From Nemertoderma westbladi (taxonomy: Eukaryota; Animalia; Xenacoelomorpha): DNA of 64,000 nucleotides. The stretch lies in contig JAUCBJ010002601.1 in NCBI GenBank assembly GCA_032718475.1, forward strand, positions 1-64,000, given 5' to 3'. A program made the position numbers and the translations under genes. The notes beneath the pieces were generated by a model. That model did no database searches and had not been told where the DNA came from. It worked only from the letters and a program-made list of their open reading frames with translations. Positions 2,032 through 28,790 of this stretch are shown here, piece after piece; position 1 is the first letter of the stretch, and each line of letters opens with the position of its first letter.

Positions 2032-2101
2032 AGAAAATGGGATTTGAGTCTATAAAATATACAAAATCACAGTTTCTAATATACGTAAATACTCTAAACA
2101 G

Positions 2102-2995: not shown

Positions 2996-3102
2996 GGGCG
3001 TAACATGGTCTCTCGATGCGCATAACCGACAACGTTGCCGAGAAACATAGTTGGCATGGCGATAATCGTACGCAGTGAGACACTGTGGACCTTGATACCA
3101 TT

Positions 3103-3549: not shown

Positions 3550-4370
3550 ATCTGCTATCTGAGTTTGTTAATATCGAAATGAGTTTATGTTTAGGCGAGC
3601 GGACGTCGCTGCCTACCTCTCTTTGCCCCCGGACAGTGGGATCCTCAGCGCCGATGTACCGTTGTCGCGGTGTTTACGCCAACATGTAGCAACAGTACGA
3701 CAACGATAACCGGCACAAGTCACTCCACTGTCCATCCCAAAGGCTTGAATCCACTTTAGGTTCTTTCTATAGGAGAGTTGGGCTACTTTCACAATTGCGA
3801 CTAGCTACTGTAAACACACCTTAGCAGTAACATTCACCTACAAACGCACAAATTCCACACAACTGTCACCAATTGTACACATACAGGCCATTTGTCCGTT
3901 AGTCAGTGCATTCCAGAATGTCACGTTATTACTGTGTATCCTTGGATACTAACAGTGTGTTATGTATTCTCTATGCTATGCAATGTGTCAAGCTTTCTAT
4001 TGTTCTCTTAACTTGCTTCTAATTCTAGCGTGGGTGTTGCTATGGTGACATTATGGAATGCTAGCGGTAGAATTAGGGTAATTCTCATGCATACAGATCT
4101 GGGATGCTATTTAATAATAATTCTTTAATTGTCAATATCCTCTTTATACATGATTTTATTAATTTTATCGGCTATTGACTATATGTTGGAGATTCTCGCA
4201 CTCTAATACACTCAATAGGATGAATCTCCGCTCCCATGATCTATTAATTAATGGAATTTTGGGGATGTTATAAATTGCATAAGACGACAATTTATGAAAT
4301 TCATTTAAAATATGAATTTAAATTTATTCCCATGAATTTTATTATTTGATGTTAAAATTGACACAATTTG

Positions 4371-8100: not shown

Positions 8101-9227
8101 ACTTTGGGAACGACAGGCCTAATTATTTCAGGCTCATCAACTATTGTAGGGAGTCTTTCTATTTTAACCACCTGGTCTATGGGTTCTGTACTACCTAAGT
8201 TGGTGTTATTTAGTTGCCTTCTAACAGCTGGAGGCAAATCAGGCAATTTATGACGGTGGGATGTTCTTCCACGTCTGCTTAGACGAGATCTATTTCCTTT
8301 GCCTTCAGTATCTGTTGTATCTCCTTCATCAGAGGATTTAAATCCCTGTCTCTTGGAAGTAGTCCGACTTATCAGCTGCATATCACTAGCCGTTATCTGT
8401 TTATTTAAGTAATCGTGCTTCTCTTGAAGATTCTCCAACTCTAGTTGGACTTTTTCTTCAGATGCCCTCCGTTCCGCTTCGGCCACTGCCATTGCCGCTG
8501 CTGCTTTTGCCTCTGCCGCTGCTACTGCTGCTGTCTTTCTGTCCTCTATCTGTTTTTTCTTCAACTGTTGTTCCCATTCTCTAACGATGCGGATTCTTTC
8601 ATCAATTTTCGCTCTATTCGCTGCCAACATTTCCGCATCTATTGCGTCCAACACAAACTTGGCTCCTTCACTATTGGGGGAAAGTCCAGACAGTCGTCTC
8701 CTCAACTCTTCGTCTCCTAAGAATCGCTGATAGTCGGATAGGTAGATGTCAATGGCGTCTCTAGTTCGCGGCTTCTCTGCTGCTGTTAATTCGCTTTTCA
8801 CTTCGCTTTCCCCTTGAGAAGAAGTGGCGTCGGTTGATTCTTCATAGGTTGGCCGCTCATCATAAACCGTATCCGCCATCTTCGCTCCGCGTTCGGGCAT
8901 CCGCTCAACAGTATCCGAACTACTGGAGCTATCGGGCCGCTGAGAACTAGGTTCTTGGCTAGGAGGTTGCTGCTGTTTTATAGCTTCTTCTTGATCCCGC
9001 TTGACTTGGGCCCGAGTGCCTATGGCAGACCTACGGCGCTTCACTAACTTCGCAAATTGCGAAATCGCTTCTACCAACCTAGGTTCTGACACAACCACTG
9101 CAGGGGTTGCCCTTCTTACAGTATGAGGGGTTTCAGACCTCGGTCTGGGATTCTCTACACTTTGATCTGAGAAACAGGCTGTTGTTTCTAGGAGACTATC
9201 TGACAGAGTTTGCCTTGTGTCAGCCAT
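5178..9227 (-). CDS. gag: BEL/Pao Gag-protease polyprotein with RNase H C-terminal remnant (1349 aa from ATG); no RT or integrase
   Basis: DUF1759-like KFNGDEMKWLPF...EKLRFLIKCLEG; knuckles CALCDGPHCLSAC, CYNCLRSGHQRRTC, CAKCGAKHHILLH; protease ALLDSGSTGTFI...ILIGQN...TRVGW; then directly WRHCLGTINPADIASRG...WP. The track start is GTG; the first ATG is at 9227 (caaacATGG). Confidence 0.92.
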   Translation of the reverse strand: MADTRQTLSDSLLETTACFSDQSVENPRPRSETPHTVRRATPAVVVSEPRLVEAISQFAKLVKRRRSAIGTRAQVKRDQEEAIKQQQPPSQEPSSQRPDSSSSSDTVERMPERGAKMADTVYDERPTYEESTDATSSQGESEVKSELTAAEKPRTRDAIDIYLSDYQRFLGDEELRRRLSGLSPNSEGAKFVLDAIDAEMLAANRAKIDERIRIVREWEQQLKKKQIEDRKTAAVAAAEAKAAAAMAVAEAERRASEEKVQLELENLQEKHDYLNKQITASDMQLISRTTSKRQGFKSSDEGDTTDTEGKGNRSRLSRRGRTSHRHKLPDLPPAVRRQLNNTNLGSTEPIDQVVKIERLPTIVDEPEIIRPVVPKVTSVLETPVLPELNSKFPLHSTTLPVPGGTVQENIPVQIAEREINNLSPVVPRQPATMLATPASAVEWVEEGRRGMNLLLGQMQETVHQLKGTVRESRAELQEVQQSIALERDKLVNIQKGIPIPPVTLCPPVRSEVLHAQGVEPTRIYTASEVETPIANPIKGDYRPVINDIPYRPDNDPRNLYTDNSILNNTMAQESFTRQMARTEARQAVKVGEIVKFNGDEMKWLPFNEYYKDSIQNSVLSNGEKLRFLIKCLEGPPKLMALKFIGHPDGLRQVWDTLNIRYGNKDNIAKYLYAKLVAPRHFLSNGIIEFSDEIQEICRQLDWLGKSHEYQSSMVIAAVVSTLPKGGVCTRWDKKVLYMNEQQRRSPTMADLMSFLDGEVKLQLIKQSREKTSENKVSEKPASRRRVTPVCYTDDGESQASQEEDSGKDTDRSYYVDKTSKGVSKYKSRISDRREQVTTTPPTSPKRIHGRKPEERTRVHNVTQGKVSNIKPKCALCDGPHCLSACAEFLKKSPVDRRTVLWNKRLCYNCLRSGHQRRTCYSDVKCAKCGAKHHILLHSEFERNSPSQVSEPKSHVQFSDVNDTDQSSEWEGFYTDEFSDANESCYLINTAVYRALTYEKDINDEFPPTTFAKQPSWKAPASNVGIREFPVVQVRVHGLNKSYIVNALLDSGSTGTFIDQELAEDIFAGQPKFRTKLNMSGIMQVWKSTLTADYYVGVLSTPQDKLGTQGIRSVKMVAIKNFATTQADLYNWDEDESIQHLKIPRFQTDYPGVQILIGQNAHEALETLEKRPAQPQPLQTYAARTRVGWYFTGPSRRTLEERMPHEQIYQVNDWEVESSEVDDPTEGTPYSSDNDDINSNVDQWRHCLGTINPADIASRGATPQELIDTPGWLGGSDSLSKEEEEWPPHLTPAEIRQAKGAEKVTQQLNRPASRLCLLERDQKLSGNYGRQDTLPTTTSLIRQISRDSIT

Positions 9228-10560
9228 GTTTGATTGCACAGTTGAATGCCTACTGCTATATTACAGTTAAAGCAAGTCTAGTAATTCAGTATCGCTGTTG
9301 GCCTAATAATTAATTACCGATACTGCTACTCAGTGTAGCGTGATATATATATAATATATTAGAATACCGGTATGCTTATAATATATATATAAGTATTGTA
9401 AACTAGGTTTGTCACAGGGTACCGGTATATAAATTTAGCACAGATATATATAAATATATAATAGGCCTATAGTGAATACCGGTATACAGCTTACACTTAT
9501 AGTATATATAAGTATAATTACGGACTAGATTAATTACAGAGTACCGGTATGATTTCAGCTCAAATTTATAGAGATAAATATAATAAGCCTATGGTAAATA
9601 CCGGTATGTCAATTATCAATTATTTTAGAATAATTGAATTTCTGAATATTTAGGGTTACTTGGTTACTTTAACTTACTTTATTACCGTTATTTAAGCAGT
9701 AGTTCAACTGATATTGAGACCTAGTTGTTGTATGGCAGGCCTACTATTTATAAATCGTTTGAGTTGATTTATAATAGATATATACCCGTTTAAAAAGGGG
9801 TTTTTGGTCAATATTTGAAATAAATGTTATTATTTCTGGGGGAATCACTACACAGAAGCTGTGCGCTCTCAGTGAAGTGTTACTTATTGAGACACTAAAA
9901 CTGATAATTCTAATTTACCTAAGTTACTTAATACTACAAATTACTTACGATATGGGTGAGATTAATTCTCTAATTAAAACACAACAAAAATATTACGTAC
10001 GAAATTTTTAGGGTAATTTTACAGGAAGTCTACAAACCAGCTTAACAAAGGGTTAGAATTCTGGTTATTACAACGGACAGGGTACTACGGTATTTGAAAT
10101 AATAAGTAGTAGTAAATATATTGCGCTGTCCAGATAGGAAAATACCACCGCCTGACGACCTATAACCGTATCGCTATAGGTACTACGTTATGTATCACGG
10201 ATTGTTCCTACCTAGAAGTTAATAGAGCTAACAAATGTGCCTATCAACCACTTTACAACACAAATATACTGCCCACACACTAATTACTTCGGACAGCACT
10301 GTACACTAAACCCTAAATTAGGTACAAGTACCGGTATAACAAATAATCAGTAGTTAAATATACTTGAACAGTTAAAAGAACCACGGCATCTGCTGGAGTG
10401 ACCGAAGCACAAAATCTCCAGTCTTTACCTACGCCGAGCAGCCCTGATGTAGTACCGGGGTTAGTTTAACTATAACGGTATGTATAACAAGCACAATTAC
10501 TGTAGGAATAAACTTGGGGACATGAATGTTGCGAATAATCGCATAAACTCTGAATAATAA

Positions 10561-11297: not shown

Positions 11298-11427
11298 ACA
11301 GCAGTACCGGTTAGGACAGTTGGGCCTACAGACCTACAGAAGTACCGGTTCTGGCAGTTGGACCTACGGACCTACAGCAGTACCGGTTCTGGCAGTTGGG
11401 CCTACTGACCTACAGAAGTACCGGTTC
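11298..11427. repeat. 38-bp tandem repeat (~3.4 copies) just inside the PBS of element 1
   Basis: Unit acag(c/a)agtaccggttctggcagttgggcctacngacct. About one degenerate copy in element 2. Confidence 0.8.
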
Positions 11428-11481
11428 AGGTTTACCGGTCACTACGGTATTTCGCAACCTTATTGCCTACTGCAATAAGAT

Positions 11482-11494
11482 TATAAACTGTTAC
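11482..11494 (-). promoter_or_regulatory. Non-tRNA primer-binding site of element 1 (GTAACAGTTTATA), complementary to its own 5' LTR at 12235-12247
   Basis: Immediately follows the 5' LTR, has no TGG, and forms a perfect 13-nt inverted match to the LTR. Confidence 0.7.
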
Positions 11495-12691
11495 TGTTCG
11501 CGCTTTTGAAGACCTTTAGCAGTTTAACCTGCCAAAATTTATATGTCTTTTAGTTAATTAAAACACCTTTAGCATACGACAATATTTTATGCTAATAAAC
11601 AAAACATTACCCGAAGTCAGCCCATGCGCGATCATTCACCCGATGGATCTACACCCGGGAGGCTGAATTCGGCTGCTTAAATTTTATTATTACAGTGTAA
11701 GGTTGCAGTGTAAATCTACTGTATTATTCGATTGATCGTTAATAATTAATTTCTGACAGATATTATTGGCTTTCGGGAAATATTAACAGTTCCTTTAGGA
11801 CGTGGCGCTCTATCTATTTAAACAGAACTAGGACTTATACTAAACGCAACGATACTGCTTATGATTAAAGTATAAAGCGCATTCTTTAGGAAATGCTTTG
11901 TTACCAATCACAATCATGCACACTATTCTGCCGACCGTCAGTAAATTTGATCACACATAAAGAGAGCAGCAATTGACTCATGTAGGGTCTGCTAAATAAC
12001 ATTAGATTTAATACACACCACATTAATATAAATCGCAATTGTTATATATAGACCGTCTCTCTAACCTGTAGTGTATCAAGAAAATTGGGAAATTTGGGTG
12101 ATTTATCAGTATTCTCCAAAGAGTAATATTTCCATCAACAAATAGATACAATTAATAACTGACGGTAAATAACAGTACAAACAATATGATTAATAGTGAG
12201 TTAATTAGTTGATCGAGTTAGATTGATTAATTAGGTAACAGTTTATACTTTCGATAATTTAAGCAGTTTTACTAGAGTTCTTCCCAAAAAGCCGGTGTTA
12301 TGGCGAAAAATGGGAACACAACAACCGAATCATATAAAATCATATGACTACTAACTATACGAGGATACCAACTACCCTTATTCCCCGAAGCTCCCGTTTA
12401 ACACAGAGGATGAGCAGTGAGATAGGAAAATTCAGTTCAGTAGCTCTGGGATAGGTCGAAATCAACGCCCACTCAAATTCTATTGGCCGATACGGACAGC
12501 AAGGCTAAGGCAACCTCTCTAAGCTAGTTGGCCGATTAAACTGAGCCCAGATATCTCCGTACAGCACATCAGCCAATAAGCTGGTAGCTTGCACCATTTT
12601 AGTTATAAATCCCTTTGAGAGTATTCTAGCGACTGGGGGGGAACTGGCCAGCAAAGGCAAACGTATCAGTTATCCCACAAAAGCTTTTACA
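11495..12691 (-). repeat. 5' LTR of element 1 (1197 bp)
   Basis: tgttcgcgcttttgaagacc...aagcttttaca. R/U5 part is homologous to the other LTRs; the U3 middle is not alignable by eye. Confidence 0.9.
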
Positions 12692-13671
12692 ACTTTAGTC
12701 TGTTTTAGGTTAGAATTATAAAGTTATAAAAATAACTTAGAACAAACGTTTTCTAACGTCTTATAATCGTTTAAAAACTACATGTCTATAATCATCTAAA
12801 CCCAAACGTTAAACTGACGTTGAATTTTAACGTCAATTTTTAACGTTATTTTGAAACGTCTGATGTTATAAATAATCGAACCTTGTAATATCGACTGAAT
12901 CACTGACATATTTTTCAAACGCGTGCAGGTAAAGATTGAAAGTAAAAAAGTAATAATTCTGGCTAGACAAGTACAGTAAGTGGCCGTGAGGTCAAACTCT
13001 CCTTGTTTTAAATTTCATGCGATCTCATTGCGACTTGAAGAAAAATTTGGGGAGGGGGTTGGGGTGGGGGGGGGGGGGGGGGTGGTGGTGCTTGTCACGG
13101 AATTATAAGATATGACACTAAATTCCGGTAAATACATTAGTGTACTTTAGATTATAACTTTATCACATTAGGCCTACGGCTGCACAGTACAATGCAATGG
13201 GTAGGTGCAAAGAGTTCACTTGCGGCCGGATTTGGAATTACTTTTACCTACAGTAGCTCAGCTCAACTCTCCTCAGCAGAATAAATAGTTATTCTTACCC
13301 ACTACAAATCATTAATACAGTACTACTACAGTAGGCCTACAGTACAGCTACAGTAAGCCGAGCGAGCACGCACAGTGGAAATGAGATCCTTTCAGGTATT
13401 CCATACGCTCTATAGTAATTTCTTATCCAATATTTTTGCAATTGAAGCTGATGTTATTTATTGTTGGTCTTAAAACGAAATTGTCACCATTAATGCAGCT
13501 TTAATTTACACTTGAAATATATTTTATATAAAACGTTTGAATATTCTTAACCTTTTTGAAGTATTCATATCATTATTTTTTTTCCTATTTCTATAGAGTT
13601 GTTCATCCTTTGCCCTGTTTAAATTTAGATTAAGATTATATTTTTCTGTCAGTTTTAGTTACTTATGTATT

Positions 13672-14173
13672 TACGGAAGCCAATAGCGGCCAGGACACAA
13701 ACATTAATGATGGACACAAACATGAATCGATTAATGTGGGACACACCCATCGGCAAAAACGATAAAAATATCTCAATAAGCAACCGTAAGTTCATGTTCT
13801 GCAACCGCGTTGATGGAAATGTCTTCAGACCGGCAAACTTTGATCAGAGGTCACGTTCTCACGGTCGTAGTTTTTCAGTTAATCATCATTAATGTTTGAG
13901 TCCCTCATTAATATTTGTGTTCCTCATTAATGTTTATTTTCCTGATAAATATGTGTCCCTCATGAATGGGCCCCAGATTAATATTTGCGTCCCACATTAA
14001 TGTTTGAATCCCACATTAATGTTTGTGTCCCCCATTAATGTTTGCATCCCACATTAATATTTGCGTCCCACATTAATGTTTGCGTCCAACATTAATGTTT
14101 GTTTGTGTCCCCCATTAATGTTTGCGTCCAACATTAATGTTTGTTTGTGTCCATGCTGCTAGGAGCTTCCGTA
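13672..14173. mobile_element. MITE with TACGGAAGC terminal inverted repeats and internal ~20-bp tandem repeats (IS3EU-like termini)
   Basis: Left tacggaagccaatagcggccaggacacaaac vs reverse complement of right tacggaagctcctagcagcatggacacaaac. cattaatgtttg repeats at 13888-14150. TSD degenerate (cttatgtatt vs cttatt), so the superfamily call is tentative. Confidence 0.7.
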
Positions 14174-14438
14174 CTTATTGGCTCTGCTGATATCCTCGTA
14201 TTTTAGCGCTACAAATAACCCACTTGCACTTGGTATAGCGTTATGGCCTAGGCATATGCTACATAGATAATACATACAGTACTGTAACAACTTTATATCA
14301 TTTATCAAAATGGCACTTAAATTAAGCTTTAAAGACCCTTGTTGATTTCAGTAAACCTTATTCACAGTGCTCGTTTTTATGTGCTTATGTATTGCATTTA
14401 TAAAAATTCACTTATTCCATCAATTTCTCATATTTGAG

Positions 14439-15271
14439 ATGGAATTAAATGAGCAAAAGGGTAAAAAACTAATTCCTATTGAGAGTACAACCCGCAATGA
14501 GATTCTCGAAGAGGAGCTCTCGGTAGATGATTTACCGGTATCTATGAAGAAATCCGAGAGATATTCATTGTTATCAATAACATGTTTGAGTAATTTCATA
14601 GGATTCACAGGATATGCCCTTGGTGGTCCGTTTTACCCCATTGAAGCTACGAAAAGAGGCCTGAATGCTACTGAAATCGGAATTGTAATTGGAATATTCG
14701 CCATCGTTGGCGCAATAACTTCCGTGATTTCCGGGATATACATGCAATATATAAGAGCTAAACGAGGATTTATTTTCGGTTTACTATTATATGGAATTTC
14801 AACAATAGCTTTCGGTTGTCTGGAATATGTTACGAATTTCACACTATTTCTTTATCTCTCAATCTTATTTCGCATTCTTTCCGCCATCGGTTTGTATTTG
14901 TATAACACTGCTGCGTATGCCGCTGTTATTTCACAATTCCGTGAAGATATAAATTTTGTGACGGGATTTATGGAATTTTTCTTAGGGTTGGGGAGTGTTA
15001 TGGGGCCACTTGTAGGTGCTTCTCTTTATGAATATGAAGGCTTTAAAACTCCCTTCAATGTTTGTGGCTCTTTGTTAATAGTGTTAGCTCTAGTAACTGC
15101 AGTTATACTTCCGCCGATTGCTTTACAGCAACCAAGAAAGACAAACATCTATCTTGCTGCACGTATACCTGCCCTCTATTTAATATGTTTTGTGTCTCTG
15201 TCTGCTGTAGCAACTATCGGATTCGTGACACCGATCTTGGCATTACATATGAGGGAAAGTTTTAATGTCGG
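14439..15271 (+). CDS. SLC18B1: MFS transporter, SLC18B1-like, coding exon 1
   Basis: PFYPIEATKRGL..IGIVIGIF, FRILSAIG, ME.FLGLGSVMGPLVGASLYEYEGFKTPF motifs and multiple TM helices. Donor GG|GTAAGA at 15272, phase 2. Confidence 0.85.
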
Positions 15272-15978
15272 GTAAGAGATTAAAATATAACATTCCATTA
15301 CTTTCTGTATAATATGTAGAAGAGTAAGAGACACGTTGTGGTCGTCGGCCACCACGAGAGTCAATGTGAATCCGCACCGTATTAATACAATATCTATAAA
15401 GACATAACTAATGGGGGGGGGGGGGCAAATTAAACCACACATTTTTGTGTCTCTGGACCATAAAATTGGATGAAAATTATTTTTTGTGCTACTAAACATC
15501 GTCTGGGCTGTGTGAGAATAACCTAAACCAAATATTTTAAAATTGGCCCAAAATGGCTCCGTACTGGCCAAAAGTGCCTTTTTGCGCAAAGGGCTATTTC
15601 TCCACTAATATTTGTTGAAATTTGTCGAAATTTGGAATATAAGTTCAGAAGAACCCTGCATCCAATTCTTCTGAACAAATTTTGCCTCAAATGCTCTGGA
15701 GCCTTTTTAGAACAAAAAGGCCCCTAAAAAGGGCTTTATTTTGGCCTTTTTTATATAAAAAGGCTCCAGGGCATTTCCAACCAAATTTGATCAGAAGAAG
15801 TATGGAGAAGGGTAATCTTAACAAGTGTCCCAAATTTCAACCATTTCAGTTAAAATTGGCGGAGAAATAGCCTTTTTCATGAAAAAGCGTCATTCTGAGA
15901 TATGGGTGTTTAAAGTTTAAGGAACAATTCAAACCTTCCCGCTAATTTAGATAATACTATTTTTCTATGTTCAACAAT

Positions 15979-17143
15979 TGTTTGCGCTTTTAAGACCTTT
16001 GACAGTTTAACCTGCCAAATTAGGATGTCTTTTAGATGATATATATTCTTTAGCTTATGACGAGTATTTGATACACTACATTAGCCGAAGCCAGTCTATG
16101 CGCAATCATTCACCCGTTGGGTATACCCGGGAGACTGAGTTCGGAGCTTAATGATTGATGGTGTAAGCCTACCGTATTATTCGACTGATCGTAATATATA
16201 ATCTCTGACAAATATTATTCACTTTCGGGAAATATTAACAGTTCCTTTAGGACGTGGCGCTCTAAATATGTAAACAGAGTTATGACTTAAACTAGACACA
16301 ACGAAAAGGCTATAGATTTACGTATATGGCACATTCTTTAGGAGATGCTTTGTTATCAGTTACAATCATACACAATGCTGCACAATACTGCACACTAATC
16401 TGCCGACCTTCACTAAATTTAGTCACGTATAAAGAGAGCAACAGACAATTTATGTTGGGCATATGAAATAGCATTAGATTCACTGCAAACCACTTAACAT
16501 AGGTCGCAATCGTTTATCTGTAACCGGTCTCTCTAACCTTTAGTATATCAAGAAGGTGGGGTGTCTGACTATTGATCAGTATTCCGATATAATATTTCAT
16601 CAACCAATATAATGAACAACCGACAGCAAAAGCAGTAATATTAGTAAGATATAAACAATAACACTGAACAGCATTGAATTGGTTTGTAAGTAGTTTGATA
16701 ACAGATATACGTTCTATAATTAAGCCTACTAATGTAAAGCTAAAGAATGCTGATATACGGAGGTGCCAAAAGCCGGTGTTCTTAGGCTCTGGGCAAAAAC
16801 ATAACACTGAACTACTGAGTTCTGTATCCACCTCCAACACAGAGACAAAAAACGCTCTGATTGGTCAACCGAACAACGAGAGAACAAAGAAACAAAGAAA
16901 TGTCGACGTGGCAATATCAGCTGCTAGCCGTCGTCATGGTAGCGACACTGTTTTCAAGAGTATCTAGCTTATCGCGTCACGAGATTGCGGATTATGTCCT
17001 CTAAAGTACAAATACAGAAGAAATGACTTTTATGTCCTCTAAAACACCAGTACAGCAAGGACACGGCCTTTTTATGCCTGGTAAACCAACCACAGAGTAC
17101 TTTACGGGGAAAATAACCGGCTAATTACGCAAAAGCTTTTACA
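15979..17143 (-). repeat. 3' LTR of element 2
   Basis: tgtttgcgcttttaag...agcttttaca; offset 11647 to the 5' LTR. Confidence 0.95.
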
Positions 17144-17221
17144 CCGCTCCCAGAAAATGGGATTTAAGTCTATAAAATATAACAAATCACAGTTTCTAAA
17201 ATATAAAGATACTCTAAACAG

Positions 17222-18742
17222 TTAGTCTTTCTTACACAGACGGCGTTTACACAGTTTTTTGAGGCTAGCAAGAGTCCTTTTCTCTTGGGGGCGAGCCACT
17301 TTACTAGGAGGGCTATAAATCCTGGGTGAAGGGTGCAATATGATTGCATCAGAAGGTGTAGGATTATGGTCGGGGTATCCGCCGTTTCGATATGCTTCTC
17401 CTCGAGCTGATTTTCCTCCGCTCGTAGCTGGATACGTTCATCCAAAAACTCTCGCAGAGAATGGGGTTGTCTAAGTTCGATATCTTCTTAGAGATTCTGG
17501 ATTTCACAATCGAACTGAGATAAAGACAATTCGTTTATCGCTTGGACTTGCTGTTACAACTTACGTTTATCTGAACAAACGCAGGTTTCCTTTCTGATCT
17601 TTGTAGAATAGCGTTTAACTCGTTTGGTACAACGTTCTCCGCCACTTTGGTGACAGGTTATATCGTGTTAAGCCGGGACGATGGTAAGGGTTAAACGGCG
17701 ATATTAAATGTCCGCGTCCCAATCCGGCTAGGTAGAATGGGCTAGTATCTAGGAAGCCCACAACTGGGGTGCCACCGACTAATTGTTCAGGTAACACTAG
17801 ATCTTTGAGCAGTGAGTACAGCTCGGGAGGATCCGTCATACTAATAGGATCAAGAGTCTGAAGTTTCACTAGGGAATGAGGAGTTCTGATCGAGTATTCC
17901 GAAACTCTGATCATTGGTTTATTTAAGGATCGTCTGAGTCGAATGAGCGTAGGTGATACATCGAACAAGTTTCGCTCGAAACTCCCGTAAGTATAGCGAG
18001 TAAAACCGTGTTTAAAGCAACGTCTCCGCGGATGTTTATGTCTTTCCGTTTGTTGGTTGGGTCTTGGGCATTCATCGCAATAATACCAAAAACGCACGTC
18101 TTGTAGGGGAAACGCGAGTGATCTTCCTCCAGCTTACAATATTCCTCCATCCGTTCGAAGCTATCCGGTACAACAGGTAGTGATCGATCGGCGGTAAGAT
18201 ACATCATAGTGGAATAGAGCCGTTTGAGTTCTACCATGCGGTCATGATGTATACCTTGAGGATATCGAGTTTCTAGATTCTGTTGACTGGTAATATCGAG
18301 ATAGGTTTCTCTCAAGAATTCCAGGTATTTGGTGAAGTCGCTGCGTTTATCCGGCTCTTCAACATCTGCACTTTCGAGTCGGTTTCGAATATAATTTTCG
18401 TGTTCGAGTCTCAGTTTATCGTTCCGCTTCCGCTGGGTATGATATTTAAATAAACCATTTCCCTTTGGTGTCTATATCGTTCGTATCGTGTAGGTCGATA
18501 GGATGACCAGTAGTTAAGAAGTTCATATACATACCATTACGATGCGTATAGCGAGCGGTGAATTTTCTACAGTCTAACCCACGCGCAAGTTGCTCCCGGG
18601 ACATTGGCGGTTAGATATAACGACCATCGTCCTCCGTAGTAGTTGGACCAGCGTCGCCGCGTATCAAGCTATCAACAAACGCTTGTAAAGGTAGAGTATA
18701 TCGTTCCCTGATACCAAGATCATCTTCTATCAACTCAATCAT
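17222..18742 (-). pseudogene. Disrupted accessory ORF region of element 2
   Basis: The ORF2 homolog has TAA at codon 44 (18611-18613; GAA in element 1) and indels near 18455-18466. The middle part is not homologous to element 1 (fragments 17923-18315 and 17615-18097). The basic C-terminus ...KKD* is shared. Confidence 0.6.
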
Positions 18743-20383
18743 ATCTGCTATATAAGTTTATCCATATTATAATGAGTTTATATTTAGGCGAGCGGGCGTC
18801 GCTGCCTACCCCTCTCTGCCCCCGGACAGTGCGAGATCCTCAGCGCTGGTGTACTTTCGCCGATGTGCCTATCGCCAACGTCGTAGCTGCACAACGACTA
18901 CAACAACCAGCACGAGCCACTCCACCGTCCGTCCCAAAGGCTTAGATATACTTCAGGTTCTTACTGGAGAGTTAGGGTTACTTTCACAATTGCGACTCGC
19001 TACTGTAAACACACCTTAGTAGTAACATTCACCTACAAACGCACAAATTCCACGTAACAGTCACAAATGGTACACATTCTATCACACATTCGGGTCATTT
19101 GTCCGTTAGTCAAGTGCCTTCCAGAATGTCACGTTGTTATTATGTATCCTTGGATACTAGCGGTGTGCTATTTATTCCGTATGCTATTCAATAAGCAAGC
19201 CCTTTATTGTTCTTTTAACTCACTTCTAATTCTAGCGTGGTTGTTGCCATGGTGACATTATGGAAAGCTAGCGGTAGAATTAGGGTAATTCTCATGCATA
19301 CAGATCTGGGATGCTATTTAATAGTAATTCTTTAATTGTCAATATCCTCTCTATATATGATTTTATGAATTTTATCGGCTATTGACTATACATTGGAGAT
19401 TCTCACACACAAATACACTTAATATAGTGAATCTCCGCTCCCATGATCTATTAATTAATGGAATTTTGGGAATGTTATAAATTGTATAAAAATGACAATT
19501 TATTAAATTCATTAAAATATATGAATTTAAATTTATTCCCGTAAATTTTATTATTTAATGTTAAATAGACACAATTTTATTCCAGAACGTGTCTGGGAAC
19601 TGGGATCCTTGATTCTAGGAATTTTGTCCTTTTAAGAGTATCGGTAAGTGCTACGATATCTTAATCGACTAGAATGTTAAAGGATCTAAAATTTGACAGA
19701 TTTTGTAAATATTAATAATTAATATTTAGGATGGGCACCAATTTATTCCAGAACTTGTCTGGGGACGTTAACCACTGATTCTAGAATTTTGTCTTTCAAG
19801 TATATCGGTGGGTGCCGCGATATCTTAATCGACTAGAATTACAGATGGTCAAAAGGTTTAACAGATTTATTTGCGTTTCACGCTACTGTTAGAGGGACAT
19901 CACGCTACTATATGTATTATTTAATATACGGTATGAGAGCAATATCGCACGAAGCAATGTCAGTGTGAAGAGGCAAGTCGTTTCCAAGGTCTACCAAGAG
20001 CTTGGTTTAGCCGAGACACGAGGATCTGAACTTTGCATTCCTAATACTCTGCCTACCAATAATACTTGAATATAGTAGTGGCTTTATTGTACTTTAATAA
20101 GTACGGACATTTCATCTTACTGTAGTTACGTATTTATAATATAACACGGACTGTAAGGAAAGAGAAAAATACTTGTTTCTCACCGTCACACTAAATATAA
20201 TATAAGTAATTACGTACGTAATAAACACGAATATATTGCACTATTCTACTAAATAATCGCTAAATAATATTCTACTAAATTAAATAAAACGATTATAATA
20301 AAATTACATAGTAATACATACAGAAATATAAAAATAATAAAATAATATAAAATAATAGAGTCACACACCCACTCCATATGTTG

Positions 20384-23300
20384 TTACGTTATGGAGTCCC
20401 TAGATGTTTGAAGGATTAGGGAGGTGGTCGTGGGAAGAGAATCTTGCCTTCCACAGTTTCCGGAGAGTCCTCCATTCCCTTCCGGTAAACACAAACGACC
20501 GACTGGGTGATTGAGTCGCTGCATCCCGAATACAATTCCAGGTTTCCTCTTCGTCCTGGAATAGTGACGATAGAAACATCGCTCTAGGTACACGACGGCC
20601 TTACAAAGCCGATTCCAGGAGCTATAGTGGTCCGTCGCTCCCTGCAGGAGAGGTGAGAGTCCCTGCGAGACGTCTGATGTTCCAGAGCTCCAATCGCTCT
20701 CTCTGATTTTCATGAAGGATCCACTCGCGGTGGGGAGGTCCAGATCCACGGCGTCGTCCCTGGCAATATGTAATACCGACAGATCTATCCCGGGTTCAAA
20801 TAACTCCGATCCACCCGTTCGGGTTTTAGGTTTGACTTTCTCTGCTCCCTTGGCTGGTCTAATCTCAGTCGGAGTAAGATGGGGAGGCCATTCATCCTCC
20901 TTACTCAGGAAGTCGGGTTCACCTAACCGGTCTGTAGTATCTGTCAGTTCTTGAGGAGTTGCTCCTCTGGAAGCGATGTCAGTTGGATTAAACTTCTTGG
21001 GGCAATATCTCCATTGATCTACATTGGAGCTAATATCGTCATTATCTGAGGAGTATGGTGTTCCCTCAGTTGGGTCGTCTCCCTCACTAGTATCATCTTC
21101 CCATTCACTCACCTGGCAGACGCGATCTTGAAGCAGTCTTTCTCTGAGCGTTCTTCGGGAAGGTCCAGTAAGGTACCAACCTACTCTAGTTCTTACCGCA
21201 TAGGTCTGAAGTGGTTGCGGTTGAGCAGGTCGTTTCTCCAATGTCTCCAGCGCCTCATGCGCGTTTTGACCGATTAATATTTGTACTCCAGGATAATCGG
21301 TGTCGAATCTAGGAATGTTAAGTTGTTGGGCATGATCATCTTCGTCCCAATTATAAGGTTCCACTTGGGTGGTAGCGAAGTTCTTTATTGCCACCATTTT
21401 GACTGACCTTATACTGTGTTCTCCTAGTTTATCCTGTGGAGTGGACAACTCACCTATATAATAGTCGGCAGCCACAGCAGATTTCCAAACCTGCATGATC
21501 CCTGACATGTTTAGCTTGGTTCGGAACTTGGGTTGTCCAGCAAAGATGTCTTCGGCTTGTTCTTTATCGATGAATGTTCCTGTGCTGCCGGAGTCCAGGA
21601 GGGCGTTCACTATATAGCTCTTCTGAGGTCCGTGGACCCGTAACTGGACTACAGGAAATTCTCGGATTCCTACATTTGAAGTTGGCGCTTTCCAAGATTG
21701 TTGTTGATCTGAAGTAGTTAGGGTGAGGTCGCTGTCTGTGTCTTTCTCATACATGAGTGCTCGATACACTGCGGTGGTGTTTATTAAGTAACAGGATTCG
21801 TTTTGGTCGGAGAATTCGTCCGTATAGAATCCTTCCATCTCAGATTGATCAGTGTCGTTCACATCACTGAATTGGACATGTAGTTGTTCGGACTCACTTA
21901 CCTGACTCGGGCTGCTTCGTTCGAATTCCGTGTGCAACAAGATATGATGTTTTGCGCCGCACTTTGCACACCTTACGTCGGAGTAACAGGTTCGCCGTTG
22001 GTGTCCTCGTCTGAGGCAATTATAACACAACCGCTTATCCCACATGACTTCACGTCTGTCCTTTAGTGATTTCCTCAGGAATTCATCACACGCACTTAAA
22101 CGGTGGGGCCCATCGCACAGCACACATTTGGGCTTGATGTTACTTACTTTAACATGTGCTGTGTGGTGCACGTTCGTTCTTTCCTCGGGCTTTCTCACCT
22201 GAATTCTCTTGGGAGACGTAGGAGGAGTTTTTCTTACCTGTTCTCTCCTGTCATTGGGTCGAGACTTGAATTTACTTACCTGGTCTTTAGGCGTTTTATT
22301 TACATAATAAGATCTTTCAGTGTCTTTCCCGCTATCCTCTCCTTGAGAAGTCTGGCTTTCGCCGTCGTCTGTATAACACACTGGTGTTACCCTTCTCCTA
22401 GAAATGGGTTTCTCACTTACCTTGTTTTCCAGTGTCTTCTCTCTGGACTGCCTTAGGAGCTGTAATTTCACTTCTCCATCTAAGAATGACATGAGATCAG
22501 CCATGGTAGGGTCTCGTCGTTGTTGTTCCATCATATATAACACTTTCTTGTCCCAGCGTGTACCTACTCCACCCTTGGGCAAAGTAGATGCTAAGGCTCC
22601 TACAACCATAGAATTCTGGTATTCATGAGACTTACCTAGCCAATCTAGTTGTCTACAGATCTCCTGAATCTCATCGGAAAACTCTATAATCCCGCTGCTA
22701 AGAAACTTTCGGGGCGCCATTAATTTTGCATACAAATACCTAGCTATGTTATTCCTATTACCATACCTGATGTTTAGTGTATCCCAAACTTGTCTTAATC
22801 CGTCTGGATGTCCAATAAACTTTAACGCCATTAACTTGGGAGATCCTTCCAAGCACTCGATGAGGAATCTAAGTTTCTCTCCATTAGATAGTACAGAGTT
22901 CTGTATGTTATCTTTATAATATTCATTAAAAGGTAACCATTTCATCTCATCTCCATTGAACTTGACGATCTCTCCCACCTTTACCGCTTGCCGGGCTTCG
23001 GTTCTAGCCATTTGACGCGTAAAACTTTCTTGGGCCATCGTGTTATTTAATATCGAGTTATCGGTATATAAATTTCTCGGATTATGATCCGGTCTATAGG
23101 GAATATCATTATCAACAGGTCTATAATTACTCTTAATAGGGTTCACTATAGGAGTTTCTACTTCGCTAGCAGTATAGATGCATGTAGGCTCCACACCTTG
23201 CGCATGAGATACTTCAGACCTAACAGGTTGACACATTGTTACAGGGGGTGGTAGTATACCCTTTTGTAAATTTACTAATTTATCACGTTCTAGCGCGATA

Positions 23301-25414
23301 TTTTGCTGCACTTCTTGCAACTCTAACCTACTTTCCTTTACGGTTCCCTTTAACTGTTGAACAGTCCCTTCTAACTCTCGGACCTGTTGGGAGGAGCGCA
23401 CTCGATTCTCCTCCATCTTTTCGAGGAGAATGTCCATCCCCCGCCGTCTCTCGTCCACCCAATCAACCGCCGAAGCGGGATCCGCCAACGTCGTAGCGGG
23501 CAGACGAGGGACTACGGGCGATATATCCTTTATATTTCGCTCGGAGTCCAGGACCGACACTGTTTCAAGGGCTGTTCCTCTAGGCACAGATAATTTGGTG
23601 CTGTGTAAAGGGAATTTAAAGGTAGGTTCTGGGAGTACAGGTGTCTCTATCACCGAAGGGGTGATTTCAAGAACAGGCCTAATTATTTCAGGCTCATCTA
23701 CTATAGTAGGGAGTCTTTCTATTTTAATTATTTGGTCTGTGGGTTCTGTACTACCTAAGTTTGTGTTATTTAGTTGCCTTCTAACAGCTGGGGGCAAATC
23801 AGGCAATTTCTGACGGTGGGACATTCTTTTACGTCTGCTTAGGCGAGATCGATTTCCTCCTCCTTCAGGATCGGTGGTATCGCCTTCCTCAGATGATGTA
23901 TAACCCTGTCTTTTGGGAGTAGATCGATTCATCATCTGCATATTACTAGCTGTTAACTGTTTACTGAAGTCGTCTTGCTTCTCTTGAAGATTTTCCAACT
24001 CCAGTTGGGCGATCTCTTCAGCCGCTCTCCGTTCTGCTTCTGCCACCGCTATCTTTCTTTCCGCTTCTGCCGCTGCTGCCGCTTTTGCCTCTGCCGCTGC
24101 CGCCTTTGCCTCTGCCGCTGCCTCTGCCGCTGCCGCTTTTGCCTCTGCCGCTGCCTCTGCCAAGGTCGCTTTTCTTTCTGCCTCTGCCACTGCCGCCTTT
24201 CTTTCTGCTTCTGCCACTGCTGTTGCCGCTGCTGCTATCTTTCTGTCTTCTATACGTTTTTTCTTTACTTGTTCTTCTTGAACCTTGGCGATGCGGATAC
24301 TTTCATTGAATTTAGCTTGGTTCGCAGCTAACCTATCCACATCGATTGCGTCCAACACACGCTGGGCTCCTTCACTATTAGGGCTAAGTCCCTCTAGCCT
24401 TCTCCTCAGCTCTTCATCACCTACAAAACGTTGATAGTCCGACAGATAGATATCAATAGCATCCCTCTTATGCGGTTTCTCTGCTGTCGCTTCATTCTCA
24501 ACTTGGGAAAATGTAGCGTCTGTTGATTCTCCATGGGTTGAGCGCTCATCTAGTTGGGCTTTCCACTGAGCCGTTCCTTGAACCTGGAGACTCACCTTTT
24601 GAAACCAAGTCTTTACAGCAACTTGCAATGACGTGTCTTGTCTTCTTTTAGAAGCCTCCTCAAAGGCTGATAAGATTAGCCTGATTCGTAGAATTCTTTC
24701 TCTAACTTGATAAAGCAGTTGTCCCTGCTCTTGAGGTCCTTGGTGTTGTTGAAACAGTTGTTTTTCTACTCGCTCCATAGAGCTGAAGAATCCCTGTGCG
24801 TATCCGGCTGCGGACCTCTTCCACACAGCTGGATCGGTGGTCTCCTTGGCTACTCCCATCCGGTGTATGTCTTCCCAGGCAGCTTCTGATAAATCAAACG
24901 GGAGTCCGGGTCCGGGGAAGTTCCATTGCGACTCGACCATAGACTTCAGTTCTTCCCTTGTGTATCCCTCATAACTATCTTTAGTCGATCGCTTACTTCT
25001 CGCCCAATCGATCTGGTGTTCTTCCACCGCGATCAATAACCTAGTGAGTACGGCTGCAGGCAGGATGAGAAGGGGATCCGAATAAACCGCATCCATCATC
25101 TTTGCTCCGCGCTCGGGTGTCAGCTCTACAGTATCTTCACTACTGGAGCTGTTGGGCCGCTGAGAAATAAGTTCTTGGCTCGCGGGTTGTTGCTGTTCCG
25201 CTGCTTCTTGGTCCCGCTTGACCTGGGCTCGAGTGCCTATGATAGACCTATGGTGTTGGACCAGCCTAGGTTCTGTTATTACTACTGGAGGGATGACCTT
25301 CCTCACAGTGGGAGGTGAACTGAACTTAGGTGTAGGCGGTTCTACACCCTTATCTGAATCGCATATAGTTACATCTAATAAACTGTCTGACAGGTTCTGC
25401 TTAGTATCAGACAT
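20384..25414 (-). CDS. gag: BEL/Pao Gag-protease polyprotein with RNase H/linker remnant (1676 aa from ATG); no RT or integrase
   Basis: Same domains as element 1 (CVLCDGPH, CYNCLRRGH, CAKCGAKHH, ALLDSGS, WRYCPKKFNPTDIASRG), plus the YSSWNRLCKAVVY post-RNase H motif, a 177-aa N-terminal insert and expanded AEAKAAA repeats. Confidence 0.92.
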   Translation of the reverse strand: MSDTKQNLSDSLLDVTICDSDKGVEPPTPKFSSPPTVRKVIPPVVITEPRLVQHHRSIIGTRAQVKRDQEAAEQQQPASQELISQRPNSSSSEDTVELTPERGAKMMDAVYSDPLLILPAAVLTRLLIAVEEHQIDWARSKRSTKDSYEGYTREELKSMVESQWNFPGPGLPFDLSEAAWEDIHRMGVAKETTDPAVWKRSAAGYAQGFFSSMERVEKQLFQQHQGPQEQGQLLYQVRERILRIRLILSAFEEASKRRQDTSLQVAVKTWFQKVSLQVQGTAQWKAQLDERSTHGESTDATFSQVENEATAEKPHKRDAIDIYLSDYQRFVGDEELRRRLEGLSPNSEGAQRVLDAIDVDRLAANQAKFNESIRIAKVQEEQVKKKRIEDRKIAAAATAVAEAERKAAVAEAERKATLAEAAAEAKAAAAEAAAEAKAAAAEAKAAAAAEAERKIAVAEAERRAAEEIAQLELENLQEKQDDFSKQLTASNMQMMNRSTPKRQGYTSSEEGDTTDPEGGGNRSRLSRRKRMSHRQKLPDLPPAVRRQLNNTNLGSTEPTDQIIKIERLPTIVDEPEIIRPVLEITPSVIETPVLPEPTFKFPLHSTKLSVPRGTALETVSVLDSERNIKDISPVVPRLPATTLADPASAVDWVDERRRGMDILLEKMEENRVRSSQQVRELEGTVQQLKGTVKESRLELQEVQQNIALERDKLVNLQKGILPPPVTMCQPVRSEVSHAQGVEPTCIYTASEVETPIVNPIKSNYRPVDNDIPYRPDHNPRNLYTDNSILNNTMAQESFTRQMARTEARQAVKVGEIVKFNGDEMKWLPFNEYYKDNIQNSVLSNGEKLRFLIECLEGSPKLMALKFIGHPDGLRQVWDTLNIRYGNRNNIARYLYAKLMAPRKFLSSGIIEFSDEIQEICRQLDWLGKSHEYQNSMVVGALASTLPKGGVGTRWDKKVLYMMEQQRRDPTMADLMSFLDGEVKLQLLRQSREKTLENKVSEKPISRRRVTPVCYTDDGESQTSQGEDSGKDTERSYYVNKTPKDQVSKFKSRPNDRREQVRKTPPTSPKRIQVRKPEERTNVHHTAHVKVSNIKPKCVLCDGPHRLSACDEFLRKSLKDRREVMWDKRLCYNCLRRGHQRRTCYSDVRCAKCGAKHHILLHTEFERSSPSQVSESEQLHVQFSDVNDTDQSEMEGFYTDEFSDQNESCYLINTTAVYRALMYEKDTDSDLTLTTSDQQQSWKAPTSNVGIREFPVVQLRVHGPQKSYIVNALLDSGSTGTFIDKEQAEDIFAGQPKFRTKLNMSGIMQVWKSAVAADYYIGELSTPQDKLGEHSIRSVKMVAIKNFATTQVEPYNWDEDDHAQQLNIPRFDTDYPGVQILIGQNAHEALETLEKRPAQPQPLQTYAVRTRVGWYLTGPSRRTLRERLLQDRVCQVSEWEDDTSEGDDPTEGTPYSSDNDDISSNVDQWRYCPKKFNPTDIASRGATPQELTDTTDRLGEPDFLSKEDEWPPHLTPTEIRPAKGAEKVKPKTRTGGSELFEPGIDLSVLHIARDDAVDLDLPTASGSFMKIRESDWSSGTSDVSQGLSPLLQGATDHYSSWNRLCKAVVYLERCFYRHYSRTKRKPGIVFGMQRLNHPVGRLCLPEGNGGLSGNCGRQDSLPTTTSLILQTSRDSIT

Positions 25415-26744
25415 GTTTGTTTGCACAGTTGAATGTCTACTGCTATATTACAGTCTAAGTAAGTCTAGTAATTCAGTATTAACTGCTAGCCTAGTAATTA
25501 ATTACCGATACTGCTACTCAGTGTAGCGTGATATATAATATATTAGTATACCGGTATGCTTATAGTATATATAAGTATTATTACAGACTAGTTTATCACA
25601 GAATACCGGTAGGTAATTTTAGCACAAATATATATAAATATATAATAGGCCTATCGTGAATACCGGTATGCAGTTTACACTTATAGTGTATATATATAAG
25701 TATAATTACAGACTAGAATTAATTACAGAGTACCGGTATGATTTCAACCTAAAATTTATAGAAATAAATATAATAAGCCTATTGTAATACCGGTATGTCA
25801 ATTATTTTAAATAATTGAATTTCTGAATTTTAAGGGTTACTTGGTTACTTTAACTTACTTTATTACCGTTATTTAAGCAGTAGTCCAACTGATGTTGAGA
25901 CCTAATTGTTGTATGGCAGGCCTACTATTTATAAATCGTTTGAGTTGATTTATAATATATATATACCCGTTGAAATGGGTTTTTTCAATGTTGAAATAAA
26001 TGTTATTATTTCTGGGGGAGTCACTACACATAAGCAGTGCGCTCTCAGTGGAGTGCTACTTGTTAGACACTAAAACAAATAATTCTAATTTACCTAAGTT
26101 ACTTAATACTACAAATTACGTACAATTCGGGTTGAGATTACAATCTCTAAATAAACACAAAAAATTACAAATACGAAATTTTAGGGTAATTTTACAGGGA
26201 ATCTACAAACCAGCCTAACAAAGGGTTAGAATATCTGGTTATTACAACGGACAGGTTACTACGGTATTTGAAAATAATAAGTAGTAGTAAATATACTGCG
26301 CTGTCCAGATAGGAAAATACCACCGCCTGACGACCTATAACCGTATCGCTATAGGTACTACGTTATGTATCACGGAGTGTCCCTACCTAGAAGTTAATTA
26401 CCGCGGTCTACCAGAACCAACGTGCCTATTAACCACTTTACAACACAAATACACTGCCTACACACTAATTGCTTTCGGAAAGTACTGTACACTAAACCCT
26501 AAATTAGGTACAAGTACTTGTACAACAAATAATTAGTAGTTAAAAATACTTGAACAGCTAAAAGAACCACGGCATCTGCTGGAGTGACCGGTGCACAAAA
26601 TCACCAGTCTTTACCTACGCCGAGCAGCCCTGATGTAGTACCGGGGTTAGTTTAACTATAAAGGTATGTATAACAAACACAATTACTGTAGGAACAAACT
26701 TGGGGAATGAATGTTGCGAATAATCACATAAACTCTGAATAATA

Positions 26745-27320
26745 AATATTACGCTATGCGTACAAACTACTCAAACAAAATGCAGACCAAATACTGACAG
26801 ACTACTATCAAGCCTAAACAAACTACGGTATATGCAGACTCCAAAATGATTAGTTAGTATGCGTTCTAACCCAGTAGTACGACTTATTCTTTCACAGGGG
26901 GTTTACCTCACAGCACTTGAAGCCCCTACTTTACTAACTTAGCACTTTATCGGACAGATGCTCTACACACACCGAAATTTCCTCAAACCCAACAACAGCC
27001 AGACAACTATCCAGCCTACAAATTATCTAAATAAAATTATACGCTACCCGTACAGACTACACAAACAAAGTACAGACCAAACGCTGGCAGACTACTATCA
27101 AGCCTAAATAAACCACAGGACATGCAGACTCCAAAATGGTTAAGTAGTATGCGTTCTAACCCAGTAGTACGACTTATTCTTTAGATGGGGGTTTACCTTA
27201 CAGCTATGGCTGCCCCTACTTCCTAACCGTTCTTTATCGGACATACACTCTACATGCACTGCAATCCGTTCAGACCAAATCAACAGTTAGCCAACAGTCA
27301 AGCCTACAAATTATCTGTAC
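26745..27320. repeat. ~290-bp tandem duplication in the 5' leader of element 2
   Basis: cagactactatcaagcctaaa...tagtatgcgttctaacccagtagtacgacttattcttt is present twice. Confidence 0.82.
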
Positions 27321-27614
27321 AATCTGAGCAGGCTTACACGCCTTCTGCTCAATACTGGCCTACAAATAAATAAAACTGACAGAAATAAGTAAGCTCCAAA
27401 AGAAACAAGGGGTGTACAGTCCCTAATCTCTTAAACAGCCTACCGGTATACAATACCACAGTCGAATAATACTGTTGTACCTGTACTACTGTAGGTACCG
27501 GTCCGGATGATCAGGCAGTCAGGCCTACTGGTTACCGGTCAACCGGTACTTTCGACTAGATTGCTTACACCGCAATCCAGAAGCAATATCTGTTATTGTT
27601 TCTGGATTAGATCA

Positions 27615-27625
27615 ATATCTGTTAT
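27615..27625 (-). promoter_or_regulatory. Non-tRNA primer-binding site of element 2 (ATAACAGATAT), complementary to LTR 28345-28355
   Basis: Abuts the 5' LTR, has no TGG, and forms a perfect 11-nt inverted match to the LTR. A second copy lies at 27586-27596. Confidence 0.7.
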
Positions 27626-28790
27626 TGTTTGCGCTTTTAAGACCTTTGACAGTTTAACCTGCCAAATTAGGATGTCTTTTAGATGATATATATTCTTTAG
27701 CTTATGACGAGTATTTGATACACTACATTAGCCGAAGCCAGTCTATGCGCAATCATTCACCCGTTGGATATACCCGGGAGACTGAGTTCGGAGCTTAATG
27801 ATTGATGGTGTAAGCCTACCGTATTATTCGACTGATCGTAATATATAATCTCTGACAAATATTATTCACTTTCGGGAAATATTAACAGTTCCTTTAGGAC
27901 GTGGCGCTCTAAATATGTAAACAGAGTTATGACTTAAACTAGACACAACGAAAAGGCTATAGATTTACGTATATGGCACATTCTTTAGGAGATGCTTTGT
28001 TATCAGTTACAATCATACACAATGCTGCACAATACTGCACACTAATCTGCCGACCTTCACTAAATTTAGTCACGTATAAAGAGAGCAACAGACAATTTAT
28101 GTTGGGCATATGAAATAGCATTAGATTCACTGCAAACCACTTAACATAGGTCGCAATCGTTTATCTGTAACCGGTCTCTCTAACCTTTAGTATATCAAGA
28201 AGGTGGGGTGTCTGACTATTGATCAGTATTCCGATATAATATTTCATCAACCAATATAATGAACAACCGACAGCAAAAGCAGTAATATTAGTAAGATATA
28301 AACAATAACACTGAACAGCATTGAATTGGTTTGTAAGTAGTTTGATAACAGATATACGTTCTATAATTAAGCCTACTAATGTAAAGCTAAAGAATGCTGA
28401 TATACGGAGGTGCCAAAAGCCGGTGTTCTTAGGCTCTGGGCAAAAACATAACACTGAACTACTGAGTTCTGTATCCACCTCCAACACAGAGACAAAAAAC
28501 GCTCTGATTGGTCAACCGAACAACGAGAGAACAAAGAAACAAAGAAATGTCGACGTGGCAATATCAGCTGCTTGCCGTCGTCATGGTAGCGACACTGTTT
28601 TCAAGAGTATCTAGCTTATCGCGTCACGAGATTGCGGATTATGTCCTCTAAAGTACAAATACAGAAGAAATGACTTTTATGTCCTCTAAAACACCAGTAC
28701 AGCAAGGACACGGCCTTTTTATGCCTGGTAAACCAACCACAGAGTACTTTACGGGGAAAATAACCGGCTAATTACGCAAAAGCTTTTACA
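27626..28790 (-). repeat. 5' LTR of element 2
   Basis: Near-identical to 15979-17143 and followed by the TSD ACAAT. Confidence 0.95.

Follow-up and report, generated by a model that had tools for sequence, protein, structure and literature searches.

Candidate self-priming of reverse transcription in two non-autonomous BEL/Pao retrotransposons of Nemertoderma westbladi

The long terminal repeat (LTR) retrotransposon Tf1 primes reverse transcription with the first 11 bases of its own RNA following RNase H cleavage (PMC7175516), in a priming complex that takes the form of a three-duplex structure (PMC10085805), and Tf2 is gated by start-site choice (PMC5341516). Self-priming has also been predicted for Tj1 (PMC4600332) and for Tcn1 and TAR (PMC6317226). 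Self-priming has so far been described in Ty3/gypsy elements (Tf1/sushi, Tcn1) and predicted in one Ty1/copia lineage. For Achilles, a member of the BEL/Pao superfamily, an 18-nucleotide (nt) primer-binding site (PBS) for transfer RNA (tRNA)-Tyr is described (PMC4580426). Here we analyse a 64,000-nt stretch of Nemertoderma westbladi DNA (contig JAUCBJ010002601.1; hereafter the window, with coordinates on the forward strand) that carries two minus-strand LTR elements, E1 (774-12691) and E2 (15979-28790), both of which are non-autonomous BEL/Pao retrotransposons.

In each element the PBS is complementary to a segment of its own LTR. The reading that we favour, to which we assign a probability of about 0.62 from sequence comparison and predicted folding, is that the first 11-12 nt of the element's own RNA would serve as primer, while the copy of the same site near the RNA 3' end would be hidden in an internal helix. 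Self-priming in one form or another, summed over all the readings that include it, is highly probable. Searches of the literature returned no report of self-priming or of a splice-made primer in BEL/Pao elements; subscription papers and Repbase notes lay largely outside their scope, and a prior mention is possible. Term counts in the Sinbad paper (PMC554778) and of a metazoan BEL/Pao survey (PMC3118150) gave no tRNA or primer-site terms, and the accessible parts of seven further papers (PMC3601003, PMC5445492, PMC13524379, PMC2864245, PMC3587641, PMC3286476, PMC6934838) do not report BEL/Pao self-priming.

A primer-binding site that follows its own LTR

The E2 5' LTR (27626..28790, minus strand, as are all features of both elements; 1165 nt, TG...CA, two mismatches against the 3' LTR) is followed immediately by the PBS (27615..27625), which, read from 27625 to 27615, exactly complements 28355-28345. 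This 11-nt LTR segment, the candidate self-primer (28345..28355), begins at a T|A step. In E1 the 13 nt that follow the 5' LTR (11495..12691, 1197 nt), read from 11494 to 11482, exactly complement 12247-12235; the candidate self-primer comprises 12 nt from the A at 12246, and the preceding T pairs too. A third LTR type (774..2023), which forms the 3' end of E1 and whose own PBS lies outside the window, carries a homologous 11-nt candidate primer at 1513..1523. An earlier note on this DNA had described exact PBS-LTR complements, 13 and 11 nt long, pairing that halts at the LTR boundary and a lack of any TGG-type tRNA site, and all of this is directly visible in both elements: the first 40 nt of E1 contain no TGG, and the first TGG of E2 lies at +47. 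The sites are, as had been proposed, positional homologs with shared flanks; in the three LTR types their distances to the LTR end are 740, about 720 and 739 nt, and each site starts at a T|A step, contains the common core CTGTTA and is followed by C.

Two substitutions and one indel separate the PBS of E1 from that of E2, and all three differences are mirrored in the respective LTR sites, in agreement with the covariation that had been claimed. In terms of predicted duplex energy, cognate primer:PBS pairs reach -15.5 (E1) and -11.1 (E2) kcal/mol versus -5.7 and -7.3 kcal/mol for the swapped pairs, a cost of 4-10 kcal/mol. Both elements show one mark of a Tf1-type self-primer, an LTR segment of at least 10 nt complementary to sequence 0-5 nt past the 5' LTR.

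Chance complementarity in AT-rich LTRs is the simplest alternative, given that the words are themselves AT-rich and that the E2 match alone would have a probability of about 3e-3 (11 nt were reached in one of 300 shuffles). The E1 match was reached in none of 5000 dinucleotide shuffles of the LTR, and in one of 5000 when offsets of 0-3 were allowed; moreover, two different words occur at homologous positions. Blind scans of the BEL/Pao loci described below gave 14 families with a match of at least 10 nt, and in 13 of these the match lies 0-4 nt past an ACA or ATA that resembles an LTR end (background 15%), whereas none of eight 9-nt blind matches, judged by eye, lies at that position. Chance is effectively refuted: the PBS-LTR complementarity is real.

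The pairing might instead be a regulatory or packaging structure, the primer being a host RNA such as a half tRNA. In favour of this, the 6-nt core is identical in all three sites, and it resembles the anticodon loop of tRNA-Asn. Half-tRNA priming is known from some Ty1/copia lineages (PMC6317226). A single host primer, however, would find only about 7 nt to pair with in both PBSs, because those of E1 and E2 differ beyond that; searches with Rfam and ARAGORN detected neither a tRNA nor a ribozyme in the LTRs, and a reading of the block before the site as a tRNA D-arm was rejected, since it fits one LTR type and its pairs are lost in the other two (by eye). A host primer would also leave three things unexplained: the match of each PBS to its own LTR, the end of pairing at the LTR edge and the differing splice-junction matches of 17 other families. 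We regard this explanation as improbable.

Two further features were seen near these sites. The E2 PBS has a second copy 29 nt downstream (27586..27596), within a leader hairpin, as part of an 18-nt direct repeat of LTR end plus PBS with a period of 29 (27586-27630), which perhaps arose by slipped second strand transfer. The most conserved block of the LTR (11770-11800 and its homologues), which lies 258 nt from the LTR end in E2, contains a second, 8-nt complement to the E1 PBS.

Predicted folding of the two copies of the site

When the RNA was made to begin at the T|A step, the predicted pairing probability (P) of primer and PBS was 0.97-0.98 in E1 at every leader length tried and 0.95 in E2 with a leader of 20-50 nt. 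Predicted pairing stayed at 0.88 or above for RNA starts between +1 and -15 and dropped to 0.28 (E1) and 0.03 (E2) for a start at -20. It is abolished between -15 and -20 by a predicted internal helix. This helix, which recurs at the corresponding position of each LTR type, joins positions -21 to +14 around the start of the site to a segment that lies 340-400 nt further downstream; it is made up of three stems, and a short hairpin bulges out of it. The earlier note had paired the LTR site with the PBS and had overlooked this second, internal partner.

The 5' arm of the helix spans -19 to +13 in E2 (28343..28374) and -21 to +13 in E1 (12234..12267), and the 3' arms, which we term anti-primers, lie at 27954..28005 and 11854..11905, respectively. 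Predicted energies are -19.8 (E1) and -20.5 (E2) kcal/mol for cognate arms versus -7.7 and -9.2 kcal/mol for swapped arms, and none of 60 shuffled arms matched the energy of either element anywhere downstream. Compensatory changes are directly visible: five helix pairs are changed on both sides between E1 and E2 (structures read by hand), and the last primer base, again by hand reading, covaries three ways, in the site, the PBS and the internal partner. An alternative pairing of the site region with a U3 block at +555-570 is possible, but it is outcompeted by the partner at +340-400.

Since the helix requires about 20 nt of sequence preceding the site, it would be fully formed only where U3 precedes R, that is, if transcription starts at the site, only near the RNA 3' end. 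Both the site (16708-16698) and its internal partner recur in the E2 3' LTR (15979..17143). Because folding prefers the primer:PBS duplex only if the RNA starts near the site, the 5' copy would be the one that primes and the 3' copy would be hidden.

We therefore envisage the following sequence of events, in which the RNA start and the cleavage are both inferred. Transcription would begin at the T|A step, at 28355 in E2 and 12246 in E1. The first 11-12 nt are then predicted to pair with the PBS some 730-750 nt away, beside hairpins in U5 and in the leader. By analogy with Tf1, the RNase H of a reverse transcriptase (RT) supplied in trans would cut past the last paired base (an AC or AU with C after it), and the 3' end so released would prime minus-strand DNA precisely at the LTR edge. 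Plus-strand synthesis would subsequently copy the primer and so rewrite the PBS, which would explain why PBS and primer co-vary. The 3' copy of the site, preceded by U3, is predicted to form a helix of 23-26 bp with its partner 340-400 nt downstream, and could not compete for the PBS because it would be locked in that U3-dependent structure.

The hairpins that would flank the duplex are predicted in both elements. One close to the U5 end (27645..27666 in E2, P 0.94; 11514..11537 in E1, P 0.80) is kept in each of the three LTRs, and all changes in it are one-sided. In E2 a leader hairpin (27573..27609, P 0.92-0.94) lies immediately 3' of the PBS, and an 11-bp leader hairpin adjoins the E1 PBS (11456..11482, P 0.96-0.98). 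The additional duplexes of the Tf1 "pretzel" were less clear: a leader:LTR duplex is equalled in 41 of 300 and 97 of 300 shuffles, and although pairing between the U5 end and the LTR is seen in each of the three types, the partner differs from type to type. As side observations, the E1 leader contains a 38-nt tandem repeat (11297-11427, 3.4 copies), and ACCGGT palindromes recur throughout both leaders.

A primer taken from the 3' copy, with the genomic RNA priming itself as a circle or priming a dimer partner after cleavage near its 3' end, would account for the same complementarity, for the site is present in both LTRs and sequence by itself does not distinguish the copies. Yet the 3' copy, preceded by U3, is the one predicted to be locked in the internal helix, and a cut there would remove the 3' repeat that retroelements require for strand transfer. 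This account is very improbable.

An origin of transcription further upstream deserves more weight. In that case the RNA would start about 100-125 nt before the site, the helix would form at both RNA ends, and a Gag chaperone or RNA processing would switch the site to the PBS before cleavage. Such a scheme would accommodate the CCAAT words at -156 to -240 and the TCAGT words at -102 to -124 in two of the three LTR types, the covariation of the helix 20 nt upstream of the site and the weak additional pairing that reaches -8 in E2. Predicted PBS pairing, on the other hand, is below 0.3 once at least 20 nt precede the site and is 0 by 60 nt, the TCAGT word is missing at that place in the E1 LTR, and the pyrimidine-A step at which the complements of 11 of 17 relatives begin favours a start at the complement itself. 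We consider priming from such an internal site unlikely.

Several points weigh against a 5'-terminal primer with a hidden 3' copy. The case for it is built from sequence comparison and computed structures, so that RNA start and cleavage enter as inferences, and the covariation sample consists of two PBS-site pairs. With a leader of at least 70 nt the E2 duplex falls outside the predicted minimum (P 0.10 at 80 nt and 0.03 at 110 nt), lying 1.7 kcal/mol above it while the primer half-pairs with its internal partner; the duplication of the E2 PBS, each copy of which is able to form a small hairpin, may contribute to this. In the third LTR type the helix (3' arm 1123..1178, -14.8 kcal/mol) is not significant taken alone, 13 of 60 shuffles reaching its energy, and its 5' arm pairs better with the partner from E2 than with its own. 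A consensus search found no TATA box at -30; TATA-like words lie on the site itself and TCAGT words at -102/-110 (E2) and -124 (third type), an arrangement that fits an upstream start. No conserved poly(A) signal fixing the end of R was found in the three LTR types, so that the RNA 3' end is presumed to include the helix partner. Finally, protein searches did not find a close autonomous relative. The earlier proposal that the family self-primes with RT and RNase H supplied in trans is upheld in part, self-priming being the best reading: an exact cognate complement that ends at the LTR edge, the missing tRNA site, predicted pairing probabilities of 0.95-0.98 for an RNA that starts at the site and the missing pol domains speak for it.

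Complements across predicted splice junctions in other BEL/Pao loci

An alignment of 14 database polyproteins was used to fetch 69 metagenome loci and one viral locus, in 43 of which (43/70) the LTR-PBS region was scanned. Six of the 43 have a TGG tRNA-type site (L027, L028, L050, L055, L058, L064), the LTR end being fixed by a repeat only in L028 and L058. One, L004, has a contiguous 11-nt self-complement (one and three of 300 shuffles). In 18 loci belonging to 17 families (L002, L005, L008, L011, L016, L018, L024, L026, L029, L032, L040, L043, L044, L045, L052, L056, L057, L062), comparison of the LTR with the first 20 nt after it revealed a PBS complementary to the LTR across a canonical GT-AG junction. 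The remaining 18 are unassigned; many of these contigs lack LTR parts, and they were not each checked. Four of the junction-type loci (L008, L011, L024, L040) come from a relaxed scan that required the position after ACA or ATA.

Per-locus shuffle counts for the junction loci range from 0/300 to 19/100, so that the evidence is weak for any one locus and strong for the set as a whole. The introns, predicted from sequence alone, are of 71-426 nt. The complements are 10-15 nt long, of which 4-10 nt come from the first exon, and the spliced duplex was more stable than either unspliced side in all ten loci computed. They start at a pyrimidine-A step in 11 of 17 cases, against 3.8 expected (p 1.6e-4, with the criterion set post hoc); the last two bases are AC in 14 of 17 and AT in 2 of 17, and C follows in 11 of 17. 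An AATAAA or ATTAAA was present between acceptor and LTR end in all six junction loci checked. The sites in the window start and end in the same way, which argues for the same mechanism and favours a start of transcription at the complement. They are not themselves junction-type: the match is contiguous and no canonical donor-acceptor pair builds it. A 15-nt E1 match across a junction was tried and discarded, as it needs a weak donor and gains 3 nt.

In Gag-protease trees (FastTree and a quick IQ-TREE on 485 shared columns at 20-28% identity, run without a topology test), the window proteins form their own long branch (1.46 stem) outside the junction clade, and the junction-type L044 groups with tRNA-type loci. 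The intron-less L004 is sister to the junction-type L008. With all of U3 included, its site (locus 566-930) is predicted to pair with an upstream LTR segment (P 0.85-0.96), and pairing to the PBS falls from 0.99 to 0.01; judged by these folds, L004 may be a second element whose 3' copy is hidden. A downstream anti-primer like that of the window elements was unsupported in L004, the site pairing upstream instead. The LTRs of L029 (9022-9080) and L004 end in TATA, not CA.

The description of self-priming as a convergent property of "this family" is too narrow, for LTR-complementary PBSs occur in many other BEL/Pao families, and the trait may be old in the superfamily. A broader proposal is that a large part of BEL/Pao self-primes, the two copies of R being made unequal in many families by host splicing of an LTR intron, with a primer assembled from a first exon of 4-10 nt, and in intron-less lineages such as that of E1 and E2 by a U3-dependent helix that hides the 3' copy; we put the odds for and against it at about even.

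The elements, their surroundings and described systems

Both elements show BEL/Pao features: a Gag-zinc knuckles-protease layout and TG...CA LTRs, with a purine tract and, in E2, a short target duplication. The 1687-aa open reading frame (ORF) of E2 (20384..25447) encodes Gag (DUF1759), zinc knuckles, protease and a short RNase H-integrase link remnant; that of E1 (5178..9260, 1360 aa) has the same Gag-protease layout and loss of pol, and the two are 75% identical across 1246 aa. PF03564 (DUF1759) matches both proteins with an E-value of 3e-12; 34 of 35 database relatives contain PF03564 or lie inside Pao polyproteins, and PF05380 is found in all 35. Aligned with 35 Pao-type polyproteins, the window proteins run from the end of the protease straight to the link remnant. 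RT, most of RNase H and integrase are visibly absent from both, the alignable pol remnant amounting to 45-150 aa, so that these enzymes must come in trans. A tRNA-type PBS, usual in BEL/Pao, is found in neither.

E2 is a recent insertion, since its two LTRs are identical but for 2 of 1165 nt and it is flanked by a 5-bp target site duplication (15974..15978 and 28791-28795); a short purine tract precedes its 3' LTR (17144..17151). E1 is most likely a recombinant (chimera) of two subfamilies, as its LTRs are 82% identical (aligned columns only) and its flanks are unmatched, with no target duplication. Because E1 is chimeric, the window carries three LTR types and two PBSs. E1 also has an extra 3' coding region (2102..3567) with two overlapping Cys/His-rich ORFs of 154 and 349 aa, which gave weak, zinc-knuckle-like Atlas leads (below 0.9); the region is not kept in E2, where the corresponding segment is about 53% identical in a global alignment.

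Contigs from four sequencing runs matched 27480-28500 (6497, 1429, 96 and 52 matching contigs), and their loose ends resemble, by eye, the other two LTR types, from which we conclude that the family exists, and is diverse, beyond this assembly; one of the runs may represent the source sample. The contigs are short, and among those listed none covered both site and PBS. The two lowest depths in each of two runs fell in the bin of the PBS and in the one immediately downstream of the site; depth summed over contigs is a poor measure, and we did not count it. The conserved LTR pattern had no match in viral or metagenome contigs.

Between E1 and E2 lie a single-exon ORF for a major facilitator transporter (14355-15275) and, after it, a 290-bp inverted repeat (15588-15876). 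Elsewhere in the window are a non-LTR reverse transcriptase fragment on the plus strand (4-612), an array of about 20 kb made of 22/26-nt units (34873-55065), broken by an ORF (36001-36786) that matches DUF6451 weakly, and a second array of 24-nt units (56005-60199).

If self-priming holds, BEL/Pao would be the third LTR superfamily with this mode of initiation, and in animals; tRNA supply and tRNA-fragment defence would not limit these elements, start-site choice or splicing could switch them off, and annotation tools that demand a tRNA site would under-call them. The covarying internal helix offers a testable explanation of how the 3' copy of R is kept from competing for the PBS, a question that any self-primer raises. 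Were both BEL/Pao routes true, primer choice would be a splicing- or structure-gated step in animal retrotransposons.

With tRNA-primed BEL/Pao elements such as Achilles, E1 and E2 share their Gag-protease domains and TG...CA LTRs; unlike them, they have no TGG site, and the PBS tracks the LTR instead. They resemble the splice-junction loci (for instance L016, L026, L044 and L045) in a PBS 0-4 nt past the LTR end, a pyrimidine-A start and an AC or AT end followed by C, and differ in that the complement is contiguous, whereas theirs needs removal of a 71-426-nt intron. The internal helix invites comparison with the Rex-response element of human T-cell leukaemia virus type 1 (HTLV-1), a tRNA-primed retrovirus, in which a long stem closing R has a base that includes U3, is complete only at the RNA 3' end, and serves poly(A) site choice and export. 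Unlike in HTLV-1, no conserved upstream poly(A) signal was found in the E1 and E2 LTRs.

As in the Tcn1 clade and in TAR (with Houba and Osr-1, plant Ty1/copia), an LTR complement of at least 10 nt lies 0-5 nt past the LTR (PMC6317226), although those elements belong to other superfamilies and hosts, and the accessible text describes neither a sequestering helix nor a splice-made primer for them. The closest likeness is to Tf1 and Tf2 of S. pombe, Tj1, Tosmo1-3 and the Tf1/sushi chromoviruses: the absence of a tRNA site, an LTR complement on the 11-nt scale directly after the 5' LTR and hairpins on the PBS side are common to all (PMC7175516, PMC4600332, PMC10085805). The two duplexes that flank the primer in the Tf1 "pretzel" were not clearly found in E1 and E2, whose site has a second covarying partner, with pairing that reaches into U3. 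They also differ from Tf1/sushi in their BEL/Pao Gag and protease, their non-autonomous state and a primer-PBS distance of 730-750 nt. E1 and E2 would thus work like Tf1 without being members of Tf1/sushi, since their proteins are of BEL/Pao type and not those of a Ty3/gypsy chromovirus.

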